A stretch of 64,000 nt of DNA from a virus (Duplodnaviria; Caudoviricetes): IMG/VR virus record IMGVR_UViG_3300017716_001697, positions 288,001 to 352,000 of that record, one strand, 5' to 3'. Below are positions 41,762 to 49,924 of this stretch, in pieces (the first letter of the stretch is position 1; each line of letters starts with the position of its first letter). The position numbers were made by a program, and so were the translations under genes. The notes beneath the pieces were generated by a model. The model had not been told where the DNA came from. It made no database searches and saw only the letters and a program-made list of their open reading frames with translations.

Positions 41762-42379
41762 ATGAGTACAACTACTTTAACAATTAAACCTAAATCACAT
41801 TACGTACAACTAAAGGACTTGTTTGTATTACCTGATTCGGACAAAAAATTCTGCGAAGAAATGGCGATATCAGATGGTGTGTCATGTAGCTCTCATATAG
41901 CAGGTGACCCAACTCTTACCCTTGCATTTTTTGATCATCTATGGGAATATGCCTATCCAAGATTCAGCAAGATACCGTTTGTAACTAGAATTGCACGTAA
42001 CATTGCTAAAGATTGTGTTATAAACACAGCTATATTATTTGAAAAGGCAATATCAAAAACTGGTAAAATAAAAAGAGATGCCACAGTAGGTCGAGATTTT
42101 GTTGACTTGTCAGACGCTAAATCTGTATCTGTTAGATTGCGTAATCTAGATAAAACATATAGCGCCAATGTAGCTGATTTAAAAACAAAACAAGGTGCTA
42201 TACGAATTATATGTTACGAACGTGTAACAAAGAAATTTTACTATTTCATTGTACCTGCTGATAAGAATCCACGAACATCTATAGAAATTCCATTTAACTT
42301 AGATGGATGGCCAAATAAAAATAGTCATTGGTGGAGATACGAAGTTAATTCTTTTGTTGAGTTATGTCGACCAGTCTAA
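41762..42379 (+). CDS. hypothetical protein, possible PD-(D/E)XK nuclease
   Basis: LFEKAI...GRDFVDLSDAKS resembles the E...D...DAK catalytic pattern; AT-rich. Confidence 0.35.
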   Translation: MSTTTLTIKPKSHYVQLKDLFVLPDSDKKFCEEMAISDGVSCSSHIAGDPTLTLAFFDHLWEYAYPRFSKIPFVTRIARNIAKDCVINTAILFEKAISKTGKIKRDATVGRDFVDLSDAKSVSVRLRNLDKTYSANVADLKTKQGAIRIICYERVTKKFYYFIVPADKNPRTSIEIPFNLDGWPNKNSHWWRYEVNSFVELCRPV

Positions 42380-42873
42380 CCAAAGAACTTGTCATCACTC
42401 AATGCTAGCACAGATGACAATGTGTATGCATAACGGTCTTTGTACTGTAAAATCTCGCTAATTTCTAGCTTATTTTTAAGCAAAACGAACTCGGGCACGT
42501 TGTTGTACTTTATTATAAGTAACGACAATTTGTCCGAGTTTTTTGCGTCCTGATCAGACTGCTCGATCCATTTGTCCCACTGTGTTACCTCTTTGGCAAA
42601 TACAGATTGAAATGACGGTGCACTCTTATAGTGTTTGCATTCTACAGCATATTTAAAATTCTTCGGGCACATCAAATCACCAAAGCATGCATTGTCTAAA
42701 TCGTGTTGTTCTACACGATATGTATTGGTACCACCAAAATAGCTACCGCTGTCAGAATTGCGCCTGAAGCCCTTTTCGATACCTAACACACCTGCAAACC
42801 TATCAGACAGCAGGTTAGCCATCTTGCGTTCGAACGTGTTTCCCTTGTTCTTCCCATTCACTTTTGTTGCCAT
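42376..42873 (-). CDS. Hjc-type Holliday junction resolvase
   Basis: KNKGNTFERKMA, FGDL, AVECKHY PD-(D/E)XK motifs. Confidence 0.75.
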   Translation of the reverse strand: MATKVNGKNKGNTFERKMANLLSDRFAGVLGIEKGFRRNSDSGSYFGGTNTYRVEQHDLDNACFGDLMCPKNFKYAVECKHYKSAPSFQSVFAKEVTQWDKWIEQSDQDAKNSDKLSLLIIKYNNVPEFVLLKNKLEISEILQYKDRYAYTLSSVLALSDDKFFG

Positions 42874-44245: not shown

Positions 44246-44815
44246 TTACGAGATGAGCATTTCGTGCAAGCTATGGTCCGTAGGACCGATTATATGAATA
44301 AGATCGTTTTTCTTATATATTCTCTTAATGAGCTTTATTAATTCACTATCTGTAATTAAGTCTAGATCTGATATGGGTCTCAGACAGATTGAATATATCT
44401 CGTTTCCGTAAGTTGTAACAGAAATTACCCCATTGAATTTTTGAAAGTACATAGACACAAATGCATTGATACGTAATTCTACATCTCCCATTGATTCTGT
44501 GATAATTTCGTTCGTGGACTTATCCTTGATGCATATATTCTTTACTTCACCTTTAATAATATACACTTCTGACACATATTGATTATTGCTTGCGATGTTT
44601 GAGAATATCACACCTGACTCTAAGAACATATTGTCAAACTTCATGTTAATGGATTTATGTTGTAACAATTCAGTTCTGAATGGGCTCCACTTGATGTGTT
44701 GAGCATCTAATAGCCGTGACAAATCATAAACCCATTTGTATTTGGGATATCTTTCCCAGCATTCTAGATCATTCTTAGGAATGTCTAGATCTTGTATGTC
44801 TATCTTTTTATGCAT
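44246..44815 (-). CDS. hypothetical protein
   Basis: 189 aa; DLECWERYPKYKWVY motif; AAGGA RBS. Confidence 0.65.
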   Translation of the reverse strand: MHKKIDIQDLDIPKNDLECWERYPKYKWVYDLSRLLDAQHIKWSPFRTELLQHKSINMKFDNMFLESGVIFSNIASNNQYVSEVYIIKGEVKNICIKDKSTNEIITESMGDVELRINAFVSMYFQKFNGVISVTTYGNEIYSICLRPISDLDLITDSELIKLIKRIYKKNDLIHIIGPTDHSLHEMLIS

Positions 44816-44824
44816 AATGCATCC

Positions 44825-45064
44825 TTACATATACTCTTTTCCCGAAGGGTTCTGTTCTTTAAGTCGTCTATTGATAACCTTTGTAAGCAGTTCTCTATCC
44901 TTGAAACTCATACCCCACGCTGAATTGAACTCTACACCACCTTTCATGAAATAGCAGATTTCTGCTATTTGCTCTCTCAGTATTTCTGATTCTTTATTGT
45001 ACGAGTTTATAAGGTCACCTAGTTGCTCTGGTGGCAGAAAAATTAAGGACCTTATGAAAAATTT
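44825..45064 (-). CDS. -1 frame extension of the gp26-like chaperone (gp51/GT-like C-terminal part), missed by the ORF track
   Basis: Open -1 frame FIRSLIFLPPEQLGDL...CYFMKGGVEFNSAWGMSFKDRELL...KEYM*; no start codon at its 5' end; begins at slippery A-AAT-TTT. Confidence 0.7.
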   Translation of the reverse strand, partial: KFFIRSLIFLPPEQLGDLINSYNKESEILREQIAEICYFMKGGVEFNSAWGMSFKDRELLTKVINRRLKEQNPSGKEYM

Positions 45065-45897
45065 ACTGGATTAAAGTCAACTTCGTTGTCCCACTCGTGC
45101 CCGCACGATGTGCATTTTGCAGTAAATGTTTTCTTAATTCCGATAGCGTTAATAGTCTGTACTAGATCAGAAATTTTATCAACATTCTTCTTATCGATAT
45201 TGAATAAGAATTCTTTAATAAATTCTTTATTGGTAACATTAACATCATTGCTTTCGTCGACTACCTTAACAACAGAATCTACCATAAGTTCAAATGTTAG
45301 TACGGCCAATTTTTTAAACGAAGAACCGTAGATTTTAGCTCGTTCTTCGTCACTAAGGGTATCGCTGCTAGCGGCTCTTGTAAGCTTATTCTGTTCAAAT
45401 TGTGTGTGCAAACCTTTTAGCAGTTCGGGGAACGCATATGGTTTGACAAACACACTAACACCGGAATCCAAGTTTACTACATATTCTTGTTCAAGAAATT
45501 CCATGTTGTCGAGCGCATATTGCAAATCTAATTTAAATGTATTTTCGGCCGTGCATTTTGGACATTTAATTGATGTTTCTAGACTGTCATCATACGTAGC
45601 ATAGCGGATTGCGGTAATTAAGGCATCAATATCATTTGTTAACAGCATTCTTGGATTCTTGACTGCCGGTACGCAGCTAACAAGAACTTCGATAAGTGAT
45701 TCTCCATTTAATAATCCGTCGGGATTCTTAAGCGACAGCTCATCCTTACCTGTCATTGGGTAAACCCCTACTTCCCCTTTATCTGTAAAATTTACAATAT
45801 CAGCATTGTAATATGATGTTCCGCTAGGTAACTTCATGTACAGCTTGAATTGCCTGAAGTACTGTTTTAGCGGGTTATGTTGTGTAGTCTGTTCCAT
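45052..45897 (-). CDS. gp26: baseplate hub assembly chaperone, T4 gp26-like
   Basis: NPLKQYFRQ..LYMKLPSG, VYPMTGKDE, CPKC and CTSC Zn pairs, ends FNPVNF; divergent from the tape-measure-like gene. Confidence 0.65.
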   Translation of the reverse strand: MEQTTQHNPLKQYFRQFKLYMKLPSGTSYYNADIVNFTDKGEVGVYPMTGKDELSLKNPDGLLNGESLIEVLVSCVPAVKNPRMLLTNDIDALITAIRYATYDDSLETSIKCPKCTAENTFKLDLQYALDNMEFLEQEYVVNLDSGVSVFVKPYAFPELLKGLHTQFEQNKLTRAASSDTLSDEERAKIYGSSFKKLAVLTFELMVDSVVKVVDESNDVNVTNKEFIKEFLFNIDKKNVDKISDLVQTINAIGIKKTFTAKCTSCGHEWDNEVDFNPVNFS

Positions 45898-45977: not shown

Positions 45978-48215
45978 ATGGTTGATGCAGTTAACATTGT
46001 AGGAATTGACGGCGAGGCACTTGCTTCGGCTCTTAGATCGTCGCCGGCGTGGGCTACAGAAAGGACCCTTAACGAAATAAAGGGATTACTTGCAGGTAGT
46101 GGCAGCGCAAGTAAACAGAAGGATGTATTTAGTTTAGCCCAACGATCTGTCTTGAAAGATTTATTCAGCGAATTAGAAAAGGAATCTAAAGCAGCTAAGA
46201 CGCGAGCCGAGCGTGAGAAAAAAGTAGCAGAAGGACGCGCCGACCGTGAATTATTATTTGGCAAAGGGCTTACTACCTTAAACCAAAAAATACTATTTGT
46301 TTCCGCAGCCCTGAATAAAATGGGTGATGCTATACAGGATACATTTAAGAGTAATATCAACTCATTTGCAACATTGCAAAGCAGTGGCCTAGACCTAATG
46401 AGAGGCATGGATAATGCCTCAAACGGGTTTCAGTCATTGCAACAACTTTCGTCCCTTACTGGAATTAGATTTACTGAATTATCATCTACTATGATAAAAT
46501 ATAATTCCGCTATAAATGCGTTTGGCGTTGGTAAATTTGCTAAAACGTTAGGTAAATCAACTGATGCATTAACTAAATTTGGATTCTCTTCAAAGGAAAC
46601 CGGTGACTTATTAGGTGCATATCTTGAAATACAACGCGGCCACACAGACATGCAAAATAAGACAACCGACGAAACATCAGCAGAATTAGTGATATTTGGT
46701 AAAAGGATTAATAATTTATCTTTAGCAACAGGTATGGCAAGAGGTGCTATACTTGCTAATATGGATGCGATGAGTAAGAACACAAGTATGGCGATTTTAG
46801 CAGCCCAACAAGGCTCTAAATCAGCAGAGGCTACTACCGGATTCCTTGCCTCGCTAAAAGATCAAGATTTAGCAAACACCTTGGCAAAAATGATGACTGA
46901 TCCTGTCAAAGCATTAAACGCTTCATTTGCAGCCCTTCAGAAGGGTGGTATGGGCGACCTTGCCGCCGAGCTTGAAACATTATTGGCGGGTATGGAAGGT
47001 CTCAGCGAATCGGAAAAAGCTAAAGCCTTGGCAAATTTTGCCGCTGCCCATGATCAAGATCTTAGATCTAAATTACTTGACGCTAATTTTCAGTCCCAGG
47101 CGCCCGGAATGGAAGCAATAGGTGCGGCCAATGTTAAACTTATAACAAGCCTACAAGCAGCTGGACGCCAAATAAACAAGTTTGCAGAAGAATCAAACGA
47201 TCCTGCTGCTATTGCTCGGGCTGATTTTGCAAAGTCATGGGAAAATTTGATGTCGCAGATGCAATCCACATTTTCTTTGCCGATAAAAGCATTGGAATTG
47301 CTTACATGGGGTATCAACGGTATAGCAGAATCCATAAAATGGTTTACCGGGTTATTTAGTTCCGAAACAAAGGGGTGGATAGGTGCAATAGGTGTTGTTG
47401 TAGGCTCTCTTGCAGGCTTGGTATTAGGATTTAAAGGTGTAACCCTTGTATTGAGTCTATTTAAATCTTCCATTCCGCTATTACTTAGGGGATCTATAGG
47501 AATGATCGGTACTGCTATAGCAGCGCCATTTAGAATATTTAGTACTGGCCTCACTACAGCATCAGCAGCACTGGGGCGACTAAGTGCATCCGCCAGTGCC
47601 GCTAGTGCTGCAACAGGCGCAGCTGGAGTAGCCGGTAAATTTGGCGGCCTCGGTAAGATATTGGGATTTCTTTCCGCAGCGGCGGTGGTAGCTAATATAG
47701 GCGATGCTGCTGGCGGCGCAATGGGCGTAGGTAAAGATAAAGATGGCAATGATATAGAACTTAATAAGGCACAAGATGATGCTAATTGGGAAATGATGTC
47801 AATGCCACAGAAGATGATGTCAGGATTGCTGAGAGGTATTGAGGGTGTGGGTGGTATTATTGGTATGGATAATATTGCTAGATCCGCCGCCAATGATCGC
47901 ATTAAGGCAGAAACTGCCGGACTAAAGACTAAGAAATCTACTGAAATTTCTGTACCTAAAGATCCTGCACCATCGACTATTGAAAGTCCGTCTGCAAAAC
48001 CTGCAAAGGTTACAGAAAAATCTGCAGAAACTGCACCTGATGTATCTGATCCAAAGACGTCAACTCCTGCCGGTTTAGACACTAACGCCGGCAGCAATGA
48101 CATAAATAACTTACTAACATTCCAAAGCTCGGTTCTGCAACAAATTCTATTGAGTACACAGGATGTTGTGTCGATTAACCGAGATATTCTTAAATTTACA
48201 AGAGCTAACGCATGA
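45978..48215 (+). CDS. tape-measure-like protein
   Basis: 745 aa, Ala/Gly/Leu/Ser-rich helical composition with hydrophobic segments; adjacent to the frameshifted chaperone. Confidence 0.6.
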   Translation: MVDAVNIVGIDGEALASALRSSPAWATERTLNEIKGLLAGSGSASKQKDVFSLAQRSVLKDLFSELEKESKAAKTRAEREKKVAEGRADRELLFGKGLTTLNQKILFVSAALNKMGDAIQDTFKSNINSFATLQSSGLDLMRGMDNASNGFQSLQQLSSLTGIRFTELSSTMIKYNSAINAFGVGKFAKTLGKSTDALTKFGFSSKETGDLLGAYLEIQRGHTDMQNKTTDETSAELVIFGKRINNLSLATGMARGAILANMDAMSKNTSMAILAAQQGSKSAEATTGFLASLKDQDLANTLAKMMTDPVKALNASFAALQKGGMGDLAAELETLLAGMEGLSESEKAKALANFAAAHDQDLRSKLLDANFQSQAPGMEAIGAANVKLITSLQAAGRQINKFAEESNDPAAIARADFAKSWENLMSQMQSTFSLPIKALELLTWGINGIAESIKWFTGLFSSETKGWIGAIGVVVGSLAGLVLGFKGVTLVLSLFKSSIPLLLRGSIGMIGTAIAAPFRIFSTGLTTASAALGRLSASASAASAATGAAGVAGKFGGLGKILGFLSAAAVVANIGDAAGGAMGVGKDKDGNDIELNKAQDDANWEMMSMPQKMMSGLLRGIEGVGGIIGMDNIARSAANDRIKAETAGLKTKKSTEISVPKDPAPSTIESPSAKPAKVTEKSAETAPDVSDPKTSTPAGLDTNAGSNDINNLLTFQSSVLQQILLSTQDVVSINRDILKFTRANA

Positions 48216-49924
48216 CATGGAAAAAATTCTTCAAGCCCGTTAATTCGGTCTTACCCGCTGCTCAACGAACAGTTGACAGTACATCTGCTTATGCATCTAC
48301 GGCAAAATATAGTAATTGGTTGCCGGAGGTATATGCCGGTCCACCAGATAGATTACAGAGATATGCTGTATATGATCAGATGAACTATGATCATGAAATT
48401 AGCGCAGCATTGGACACTATTGCAGACTTTGCAACAGATCCAGACGAAGTAACAAAACTTCCACTTGTAATTGAGTACAATGACGAACCTACACCATCAG
48501 AAATTCAGATTCTAGAAAAATCTCTTAATCAGTGGGTTAGGATGAACAAGTTATCTAGACGCCTATGGCGCATGTTTAGGTCAGTATTGGTTTACGGTGA
48601 TCAATTCTTTATTCGCGACCCGGAGACGTTCGAATTATACTGGATTGATCCAGCTAAGGTAGAAAAGGTTATTGTAAACGAAAGCGAAGGTAAGAAGATT
48701 GAAAGCTACTTTGTTAAGGACATTGATCTTAACATGAAGAATCTTGTTGCTACCAATCAGTTAAACAAAGCATCTAATGCCGCTATGGGCGGCAACAGTA
48801 TTGTATTTTCACCACCAATGGCAGGAAATCTAAACTATGTATCTGGTGGCTTTGGCAGTGCAGGCAGCGCCAATTACAAAGATGGTGGTGCAACAGCAGT
48901 GGATGCCGAACATATTGTGCAATTATCGTTAACTGACGGTATGAATGCTGCATGGCCCTTTGGCCTAAGTATTTTAGAGCAAATTTACAAGGTTTACAAG
49001 CAAAAAGAACTACTAGAAGACGCTATTCTTATATATCGTGTACACCGCGCACCAGAGCGTCGTGTATTCTTTATTGACGTAGGTACAATGCCACCTAATA
49101 AGGCGTCACAATACTTAGAGCGCATCCGCTACGAAGTTCAACAGAAGCGTATTCCTAGCCGTACAGGCGGCGGAGCCAACGTTGTTGATTCTACATACAA
49201 CCCTATGTCTATATTAGAAGATTATTTCTTTGCAGTAACTTCTGAGGGTCGCGGCTCTAAAGTCGAAGTATTACCGGGTGGCGAAAACCTAGGTGATATT
49301 GATGACTTGCGTTATTTCAATAACAAGATGCTTCGTGCATTAGGTGTACCTAGTTCTTACTTACCAACAGGCCCAGAAGATGGTACGGCAGCAGTAACAG
49401 ACGGCAAAGTAGGCACGGCATTTATTCAGGAATTTAGGTTTGCTAAGGTTGTAACACGTTATCAGCAACAAATCATTGAACCACTCGATGATGAGTTTAA
49501 GTTATTCATTAAGCATCGTGGTATAACAATCGACAATAGTTTGTTCCAATTGAAATTCACACCTGCGCAATCGTTCTCTGAATATCGTCAGCTTGAATTA
49601 GACGCAGCAAGAATTAATACATTTACTGCGCTTACTGATATTTCGTTTGTATCCAAGAGATTCATTCTTAAGACATATTTAGGATGGACAGAAGAGCAAT
49701 TAGCTGAGAATGAGCGTATGTGGAAAGAAGAACGTAGTCGTCTTACTAAGACATTTGCTCCAGAGGCTAGCGGTGGTGGCAGTGCTACATCGGGACTATC
49801 TGATGTAGGTATTACCAGTTCTGGAATTGACGATATGGCACCTGATGCTGAAGAAGCAGGTGCACCAGCTGATACAGGTGCAGCACCAGTTTCTGATACA
49901 GAAGTAGATAGTTTCGGTAGTTAA
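48212..49924 (+). CDS. gp20: portal protein, T4 gp20-like
   Basis: EISAALD, LEDAILIYRVHRAPERRVFFIDVGTMP, EDYFF..GRGSKVEVLPGG. Confidence 0.92.
   Translation: MTWKKFFKPVNSVLPAAQRTVDSTSAYASTAKYSNWLPEVYAGPPDRLQRYAVYDQMNYDHEISAALDTIADFATDPDEVTKLPLVIEYNDEPTPSEIQILEKSLNQWVRMNKLSRRLWRMFRSVLVYGDQFFIRDPETFELYWIDPAKVEKVIVNESEGKKIESYFVKDIDLNMKNLVATNQLNKASNAAMGGNSIVFSPPMAGNLNYVSGGFGSAGSANYKDGGATAVDAEHIVQLSLTDGMNAAWPFGLSILEQIYKVYKQKELLEDAILIYRVHRAPERRVFFIDVGTMPPNKASQYLERIRYEVQQKRIPSRTGGGANVVDSTYNPMSILEDYFFAVTSEGRGSKVEVLPGGENLGDIDDLRYFNNKMLRALGVPSSYLPTGPEDGTAAVTDGKVGTAFIQEFRFAKVVTRYQQQIIEPLDDEFKLFIKHRGITIDNSLFQLKFTPAQSFSEYRQLELDAARINTFTALTDISFVSKRFILKTYLGWTEEQLAENERMWKEERSRLTKTFAPEASGGGSATSGLSDVGITSSGIDDMAPDAEEAGAPADTGAAPVSDTEVDSFGS

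Follow-up and report, generated by a model that had tools for sequence, protein, structure and literature searches.

A single gene of the gp26/gp51 family (PF12322) in a giant phage is predicted to yield both a short and a long protein by programmed -1 ribosomal frameshifting, a reading to which we assign a probability of about 0.8. The gene, a homologue of the hub assembly chaperones of phage T4, lies on the minus strand at positions 45052-45897 of a 64,000-nucleotide (nt) stretch (the window), which covers positions 288,001 to 352,000 of the IMG/VR record IMGVR_UViG_3300017716_001697, a 364,576-bp virus record with terminal repeats and of freshwater origin. The frameshift is supported because a slippery site is conserved in phase with the gene, protein conservation of the downstream frame starts at that site, this frame has no conserved start codon, natural in-frame fusions of the two frames exist, and a stem-loop behind the site is conserved. 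From these features we infer the actual slippage of ribosomes, the ratio of the two forms and a role in hub and tape-measure assembly. An earlier note on this DNA had proposed that a gp26-like protein is joined to a start-less frame by a programmed -1 frameshift, and all comparative tests that we ran support it.

The 0-frame open reading frame (ORF) encodes the short form of 281 amino acids, followed by a stop codon. It matches PF12322 with E 1e-19 (71.6 bits against a gathering cut-off of 24.5; residues 40-270 on profile positions 11-207 of 219) and the 'baseplate hub' family phrog_150 of PHROG with E 1.3e-21, and it is the only PF12322 match in the whole 364,576-bp genome. When the protein is aligned with T4 gp26 and seven jumbo phages, F280 and the four cysteines of a split zinc ribbon (C112/C115 and C262/C265) are invariant, and the conserved C-terminal Phe-Phe aligns with ...EFFELL of T4 gp26. 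Around the proposed site the minus strand reads CCA GTA AAT TTT TCA TAA, and the 0-frame product ends in FNPVNFS*. The slippery heptamer A_AAT_TTT (45058-45064, minus strand), which the earlier note had picked out, covers the Asn-Phe codons and was read in phase with the 0 frame, with TCA as the single sense codon between it and the 0-frame stop TAA (45054-45052). The -1 frame is closed just upstream by TGA and then TAA (45073-45071) and opens at 45070, 6 nt before the heptamer; together with the 0-frame stop this confines the shift to 18 nt that hold the heptamer.

From the slip site to its TAA the -1 frame spans 44825-45064 (minus strand) with 79 sense codons, adding 77 residues after the first Phe of Phe-Phe. 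Its translation reads KFFIRSLIFLPPEQ...KEYM, with the stop at 44827-44825, and the next gene downstream begins at 44815. The first ATG, GTG or TTG of this frame is the ATG at 44947 (MKGGVEF), 39 codons in. A slip on the heptamer would give a predicted long form of 280 + 77 = 357 amino acids with the junction PVNF/FIRS, and the translation agrees with the 77 further open residues, the missing start at the 5' end and the PVNFFIR junction that had been described before. A Pfam scan of the extension (E <= 0.1) gave no match; the AlphaFold model of the extension alone comprises four helices with a predicted local distance difference test score (pLDDT) of 82.

In the proposed decoding, most ribosomes would read AAT TTT TCA and stop, producing the 281-residue short form, and a fraction would slip back by one base with tRNA-Asn and tRNA-Phe on A_AAU_UUU; the product would not differ if tRNA-Phe alone slipped on U_UUU instead of both tRNAs in tandem. 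Slipped ribosomes would then read 77 more codons and produce the 357-residue form with an extra helical C-terminal domain. Heptamers of the type H_HH.U_UU.Y are among the most efficient -1 motifs in Escherichia coli, and among single-tRNA tetramers U_UU.C ranks second and U_UU.U third (Sharma et al., PMC4066793). Both A_AA.U_UU.U, as in the window, and U_UU.U_UU.C, as in the more distant relatives described below, fall in the H_HH.U_UU.Y class.

The site is deeply conserved. A scan of IMG/VR gave 34 loci with 62-75% protein identity, 33 of them reaching the 3' end of the gene (two of these 33 are cut by contig ends). All 33 of these close relatives retain GTAAATTTTTC(A/T)TAA, and the codons just upstream of it vary synonymously (GAT/GAC, TTT/TTC, AAT/AAC, CCA/CCT/CCG). 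The 0-frame TAA is invariant in the 26 distinct relatives that were aligned. In every close relative whose contig continues, the -1 frame is open for at least 81 codons, and the position of its first canonical start shifts among the 33 relatives, from 40 nt upstream of the 0-frame stop to 107 nt downstream of it. Past that stop, and ahead of any codon that might serve as a start, the -1 frame shows synonymous codon changes (TCC/TCA/TCT/TCG for Ser, TTA/CTA/CTT/CTG/TTG for Leu), so that this stretch is already read as protein before a start is reached.

The same arrangement recurs at greater distance in what we count as 11 further sequences, most of them about 30-45% identical (PA5oct, Atu_ph07, Phosso, RaK2, the RaK2-like contigs L045-47, CBB, Vibrio phage 2.275.O, SCTP-2 and the metagenome contigs L050, L051 and L052). 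All 11 carry T_TTT_TTC in phase at the aligned Phe-Phe; of the orthologues, which the earlier note wanted checked for the heptamer, 33 of 33 close relatives keep A_AAT_TTT and these 11 have T_TTT_TTC in its place. Their -1 ORFs run for 73-81 codons and begin FFR.(K/R)LL..PEEI; the 0-frame stop lies at a variable distance of 1 to 12 codons after the site, and the -1 ORF of PA5oct contains no ATG, GTG or TTG whatsoever. Over the 16 codons after the first Phe in 12 lineages, the mean pairwise BLOSUM62 score was +1.47 for the -1 frame, which is free of stops, compared with -0.47 and -0.37 for the other two frames, which are rich in them. The extensions can be aligned from Phe-Phe to their end with a gap of at most one residue, so that the domain keeps a fixed register to the slip site. 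To judge from these sequences, the site is able to change from U_UUU_UUC to A_AAU_UUU with recoding kept, as the clade of this phage shows; specific to the clade are the A_AAT_TTT variant with only five T, a stop one codon later and the conserved stem-loop.

We also searched more widely. With tblastn against phage records, the gene was found in 94 giant phages, and the extension followed it directly in the -1 frame in PA5oct-like phages, Atu_ph07, Phosso and SCTP-2. A profile of the extension, run against 1.84 billion representative proteins, matched 418 clusters at E <= 1e-3. Scans with single proteins gave no match for the Vibrio phage protein and, for the Atu_ph07 protein, Atu_ph07 itself only.

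The breadth of this conservation bears on whether the split is an artefact or a sign of decay, i.e., whether a homopolymer error or a recent frameshift mutation has broken one in-frame gene. One extra T would join the frames, and in-frame versions do exist in nature. However, more than 40 genomes and contigs, finished isolates included, share this -1 arrangement; they were assembled independently of one another and differ in the context of the run. An independent metagenome contig, 88% identical, passes through the site without an indel, and the depth of the source-sample contig is 77. A run of six T in this phage is very unlikely because the 33 relatives are concordant, and the in-frame fusion that could be read in DNA (see below) has no T-run at its junction. 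We therefore regard an artefact or decay as highly improbable.

Behind the heptamer, a stem formed by ATAAGGTC and GACCTTAT pairs 45055-45048 with 45016-45009, plus inner pairs, giving a stem-loop at 45009-45055 (minus strand). The 70 nt after the heptamer fold with a minimum free energy of -16.5 kcal/mol (z = -3.7), and only 1 of 200 shuffled sequences folds as well, which bears out the stem drawn in the earlier note. Its 5-bp core AGGUC/GACCU (45052-45048/45016-45012) begins 5 nt after the heptamer, is nearly invariant in the 26 distinct relatives and is retained by RNAalifold. Two pairs beyond the core covary (pair 20-50 as AU/UA/CG/GC, pair 21-49 as CG/UG/UA), and 79% of the alignment cells are able to pair against 77% in shuffles, with none of 500 shuffles reaching the observed pairing or covariation. 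Significant downstream folds also occur in PA5oct, Atu_ph07 and Phosso. No Shine-Dalgarno-like stimulator was seen upstream of the site. The stem-loop is a probable part of the signal, and, starting 2-5 nt downstream, it would probably aid the slip.

The position of the stem-loop and the phase of the heptamer also speak to transcriptional slippage, in which RNA polymerase would add one U in the run of five or six T and thereby bring part of the mRNAs in-frame. Such slippage would give an identical protein and would likewise conserve the T-run, and homopolymer runs are known slippage sites (PMC4066793, for runs of 7). The run here, with 5 T in this phage and 6 T elsewhere, is shorter than the runs of at least 7 that Sharma et al. 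discuss (PMC4066793). Moreover, the phase of the heptamer is conserved, the base before the run always being in phase and the last base being C in the clades with six T; a phased heptamer matters to tRNAs, not to the polymerase. The downstream stem-loop is, in this clade, conserved at the distance expected for programmed ribosomal frameshifting. Taken together, these features make polymerase slippage quite unlikely as the source of the long form.

Natural fusions of the two frames were sought among the best 150 of the 418 clusters matched by the extension profile. Three full-length proteins (P0096, P0101 and P0147; 339-351 amino acids) and one fragment of 167 amino acids (P0103) carry the PF12322 domain and the extension in one frame. 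The fusion junction has a single Phe (..NF-RQKL..), and in P0101 (contig L049), the sole fusion whose junction was read in DNA, it is encoded by AAT TTT AGA, and the T-run is missing. Genes whose two frames differ thus retain the slippery run, which is absent from the fusion that was read. The AlphaFold model of P0101 has a pLDDT of 83.5 and a predicted template modelling score of 0.81; its extension, with pLDDT 93-97, shows the same four helices as that of the phage in the window. These fusions demonstrate only that the fused architecture is viable.

The two products invite comparison with T4, where gp26 (208 amino acids) and gp51 (249 amino acids) are paralogues, each matching PF12322 from end to end (E 9e-64 and 4e-52). 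A review of the T4 tail (PMC3004832) lists the two among the hub assembly chaperones and describes their roles in hub assembly as contradictory or unknown; gp51, according to it, is an essential protein that is not part of the particle and whose function is unknown. Both T4 proteins resemble that of the window in the PF12322 domain, the split zinc ribbon and the C-terminal Phe-Phe. T4 gene 26 ends in AAA GAG TTC TTT GAG TTA CTA TAA with gene 25 directly after it, and it contains no slippery site and no extension.

We compared profiles built from the conceptual long forms of 22 frameshifted genes plus the three natural fusions with each of the T4-type families. Against the gp26 family the long forms gave E 9.5e-8, and the alignment stops exactly at Phe-Phe; against the gp51 family they gave E 8.7e-5, in an alignment collinear to the last residues of gp51. 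The matching segments pair FKLLLNPDEI with FFR.LL..PEEI, and MIPxER..L.L.EKD with AW.MS..DRE....INKK. When the extension alone was compared with the gp51 end alone, P was 2.3e-4 and none of 200 column shuffles reached the score. BLASTP of the extension against T4 gp51 returned nothing (E 53), and hhalign of the single sequences, extension against gp51, gave P 0.064 and no signal, which arises only from family-against-family profiles. In the protein collection, homologues of gp51 bear a second Pfam domain, PF28602, and homologues of gp26 are without it; for the small extension ORFs of the same collection, the precomputed Pfam annotation is empty. A search of PDB sequences with the gp51 family profile returned chance zinc-ribbon matches only. 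T4 uvsY.-1 was also considered as a counterpart of the extension, and no resemblance was seen in the translated protein.

These comparisons suggest that the short form of this phage would correspond to T4 gp26 and the long form to gp51, the hub 'assembly catalyst'. T4 gp26 is like the 0-frame product in ending 3 residues past Phe-Phe, and T4 gp51 is like the long form in having a helical end of about 55 amino acids that is collinear with the -1 extension, its linker being about 14 residues shorter than that of the long form. In T4 there are two separate, divergently placed genes and no slippery site, whereas this phage has one gene and requires recoding for the long form. From the alignments, gp26 looks like the counterpart of the short form and gp51 like an in-frame long form, and the extension is likely homologous to the end of gp51. 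The proposal in the earlier note that gp26 and gp51 are a split two-gene equivalent of the frameshifted gene therefore holds as to gp26 for the short form and gp51 for the long form, not as to gp51 for the extension alone: on the profile alignments gp51 is a paralogue of the whole long form, only its last ~55 residues matching the extension. The homology of the -1 frame to gp51, which the earlier note had named as a check, has the modest profile match in its favour and the BLASTP result against it.

Several observations weigh against programmed frameshifting in this gene. The arms of the stem double as codons (Arg-Ser and Asp-Leu), making their conservation ambiguous, and for this reason the covariation is only moderate evidence; the Asp codon of the arm is GAC in all but three of the 26 sequences and GAT in none, and the following Leu is CTN in 26/26, a bias that hints at selection at the RNA level. 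The extended stem of this phage starts 2 nt after the heptamer, which is closer than usual, whereas the conserved core alone gives a normal 5-nt spacer, and no significant downstream fold was found in RaK2, SCTP-2, L045 or L052. The homology between the extension and gp51 is modest, with hhalign probabilities of 44% for the parts and 60% for the whole long form. In 6 of the 33 close relatives an ATG stands at the seventh codon of the extension behind TAAGG, so that some independent initiation is possible, and in Atu_ph07 (L002:2510-2513) and Phosso (L003:2507-2510) an ATG overlaps the TGA stop (ATGA), three codons past the heptamer; in these two phages the extension might be made both as a fusion and as a coupled free protein.

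The ATG codons in these relatives would also suit an independent small gene in the downstream frame, whose translation would begin at a weak or non-canonical codon or by re-initiation after the TAA, with the T-run kept only for the sake of Phe-Phe. In the window, an ATT 11 nt after the stop and 6 nt behind TAAGG, replaced by ATG in 6 of the 33 relatives, is a possible start, and several GenBank records annotate a separate small ORF. The residues before the candidate start (FFIRSL; FFR.KLL in other clades) are, however, conserved as protein with synonymous codon changes, and the distance from Phe-Phe to the domain is fixed in all lineages, in-frame fusions being known as well. The candidate start itself falls at differing positions by clade (4th or 7th codon of the extension) and is missing in PA5oct, the leader AGAGGCACCCAAA is absent from the sequence read here, and the ATA codon after the T-run is replaced by TTA in the relative L028. 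As for the run, T4 codes its Phe-Phe as TTC TTT, which implies that the protein needs no T-run. On balance, a separate small gene is unlikely, and we favour a programmed frameshift as the source of the long form.

Public annotation reflects this arrangement poorly. The GenBank records of PA5oct, MIJ3 and Cassandra leave the extension unannotated (a 220-nt hole), others call a separate small ORF, and none of the records examined joins the two frames. In a literature search, from whose coverage most subscription journals were absent, no published account of the slip came to light. Public gene calls for the extension are fragments of 40 to 98 amino acids, and they are arbitrary because the first canonical start wanders among relatives. 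Many of them (P0010, P0013, P0026, P0029 and others, e.g. L050:891-1157) are 87-98 amino acids long and start 11-20 residues ahead of Phe-Phe; several of them use a -1-frame ATG that arises where the zinc-ribbon motif HEW has its conserved Glu-Trp (GA ATG G). We read these 87-98-residue calls as gene-caller artefacts and not as real starts. The ORF called at L051:41-322 translates only with TGA as Trp, this TGA lying in the -1 frame upstream of the slip site, and we read it as a mis-called ORF rather than as a sign of an alternative genetic code. Many annotations would be corrected by a simple rule that looks for a PF12322 gene whose end follows closely on an in-phase T-run. If the reading offered here holds, a very large group of giant phages has in its hub-chaperone gene a -1 frameshift that is deeply conserved and has gone unannotated, and the two products are linked to T4 gp26 and gp51.

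On the other side, the gene adjoins a divergent gene (45978-48215, plus strand) for a protein of 745 amino acids that appears to be tape-measure-like. Its language-model matches belong mostly to tape-measure families, PF10145 occurring in 64/100 and PF20155 in 34/100, with scores of 0.93-0.94, and its RaK2 counterpart is annotated tape-measure-like. Pfam and PHROG gave no match to this protein and tblastn against phage records came back empty; we take the assignment as a lead and not as proof. The portal gene (48212-49924) overlaps the stop of the tape-measure-like gene, and protease and major head genes also follow. A tape-measure-like gene directly upstream of the portal is unusual in comparison with T4, where gene 29 sits in the hub cluster; gp29 is thought to be the ruler (PMC3004832).

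Directly downstream of the PF12322 gene lies an ORF of 189 amino acids (44246-44815, minus strand) without a Pfam match and with a chance-level PHROG match. In T4 its position is occupied by gene 25, and the 189-residue ORF is without a gp25 signature. The window (42376-42873, minus strand), PA5oct (L001:4712-5209) and Phosso (L003:4920-5213) each have a RusA-like Holliday junction resolvase no more than about 2.5 kb from the PF12322 gene, and in RaK2 and CBB an endonuclease VII is found nearby instead. It looks as though the neighbourhood is conserved with the type of resolvase exchanged.

For lambda-like and P2-like phages, frameshifting of the tail assembly chaperone genes is textbook knowledge, with E/E+E' of P2 using a T-rich run, and to our knowledge T4 and its relatives are treated as an exception to it. 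Lambda G and GT are not known to be present in virions. The CBB homologue, CBB_250 (L040:1189-2046), is annotated as 'structural protein' in GenBank, presumably on the basis of virion proteomics; in that case the short form, unlike G/GT and gp51, may stay in the particle of some giant phages.

Long-tailed phages conserve a -1 frameshift in their genes for tail assembly chaperones (Xu, Hendrix and Duda 2004, as cited in PMC9024508). The arrangement described here is like lambda G/GT in that a tail-assembly chaperone gene holds a heptamer close to its 3' end, at which a -1 slip would let one start give rise to a short and a C-terminally extended form, the extension having no start of its own; the gene adjoins a tape-measure-like gene, and the arrangement is conserved while the sequences diverge. 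It differs in that the protein has 280 residues and a zinc ribbon, compared with a helical chaperone of about 140 residues, and in that the gene is divergent from the tape-measure-like gene and does not lie between tube and tape-measure genes on the same strand. A Pfam scan of both parts (E <= 0.1) matched PF12322 and chance zinc ribbons only, with no match to the gpG or gpT families, and fold searches gave nothing above noise, whether with the model of the extension (PDB, BFVD) or with that of the fusion (PDB Foldseek, VIA wide). The link to lambda G/GT drawn in the earlier note thus survives as a shared logic, without a family match and with a different gene position, and on this comparison the likeness is best seen as one of functional logic and not of homology. 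With the cassettes of dnaX and of IS3/IS911 orfAB, the gene shares an X_XXY_YYZ heptamer and a downstream stem-loop; it differs from them in having no upstream Shine-Dalgarno-like stimulator and in a downstream structure that is not detectable in every lineage. U_UU.U_UU.C is among the heptamers found in insertion sequence elements (PMC4066793).

We tentatively propose, at somewhat less than even odds, that the gp26/gp51 family may be the T4-superfamily counterpart of the G/GT tape-measure chaperones, and that frameshifting may be its common and perhaps ancestral state. In jumbo phages the slip would then hold a gp51-like 'catalyst' at a low, fixed level relative to a gp26-like bulk form, and T4-like phages would have swapped recoding for gene duplication, keeping one copy short and one in-frame long. 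If true, this would explain why catalytic amounts of T4 gp51 suffice and why it is absent from virions, and would make the function of gp51 directly testable via its C-terminal domain.

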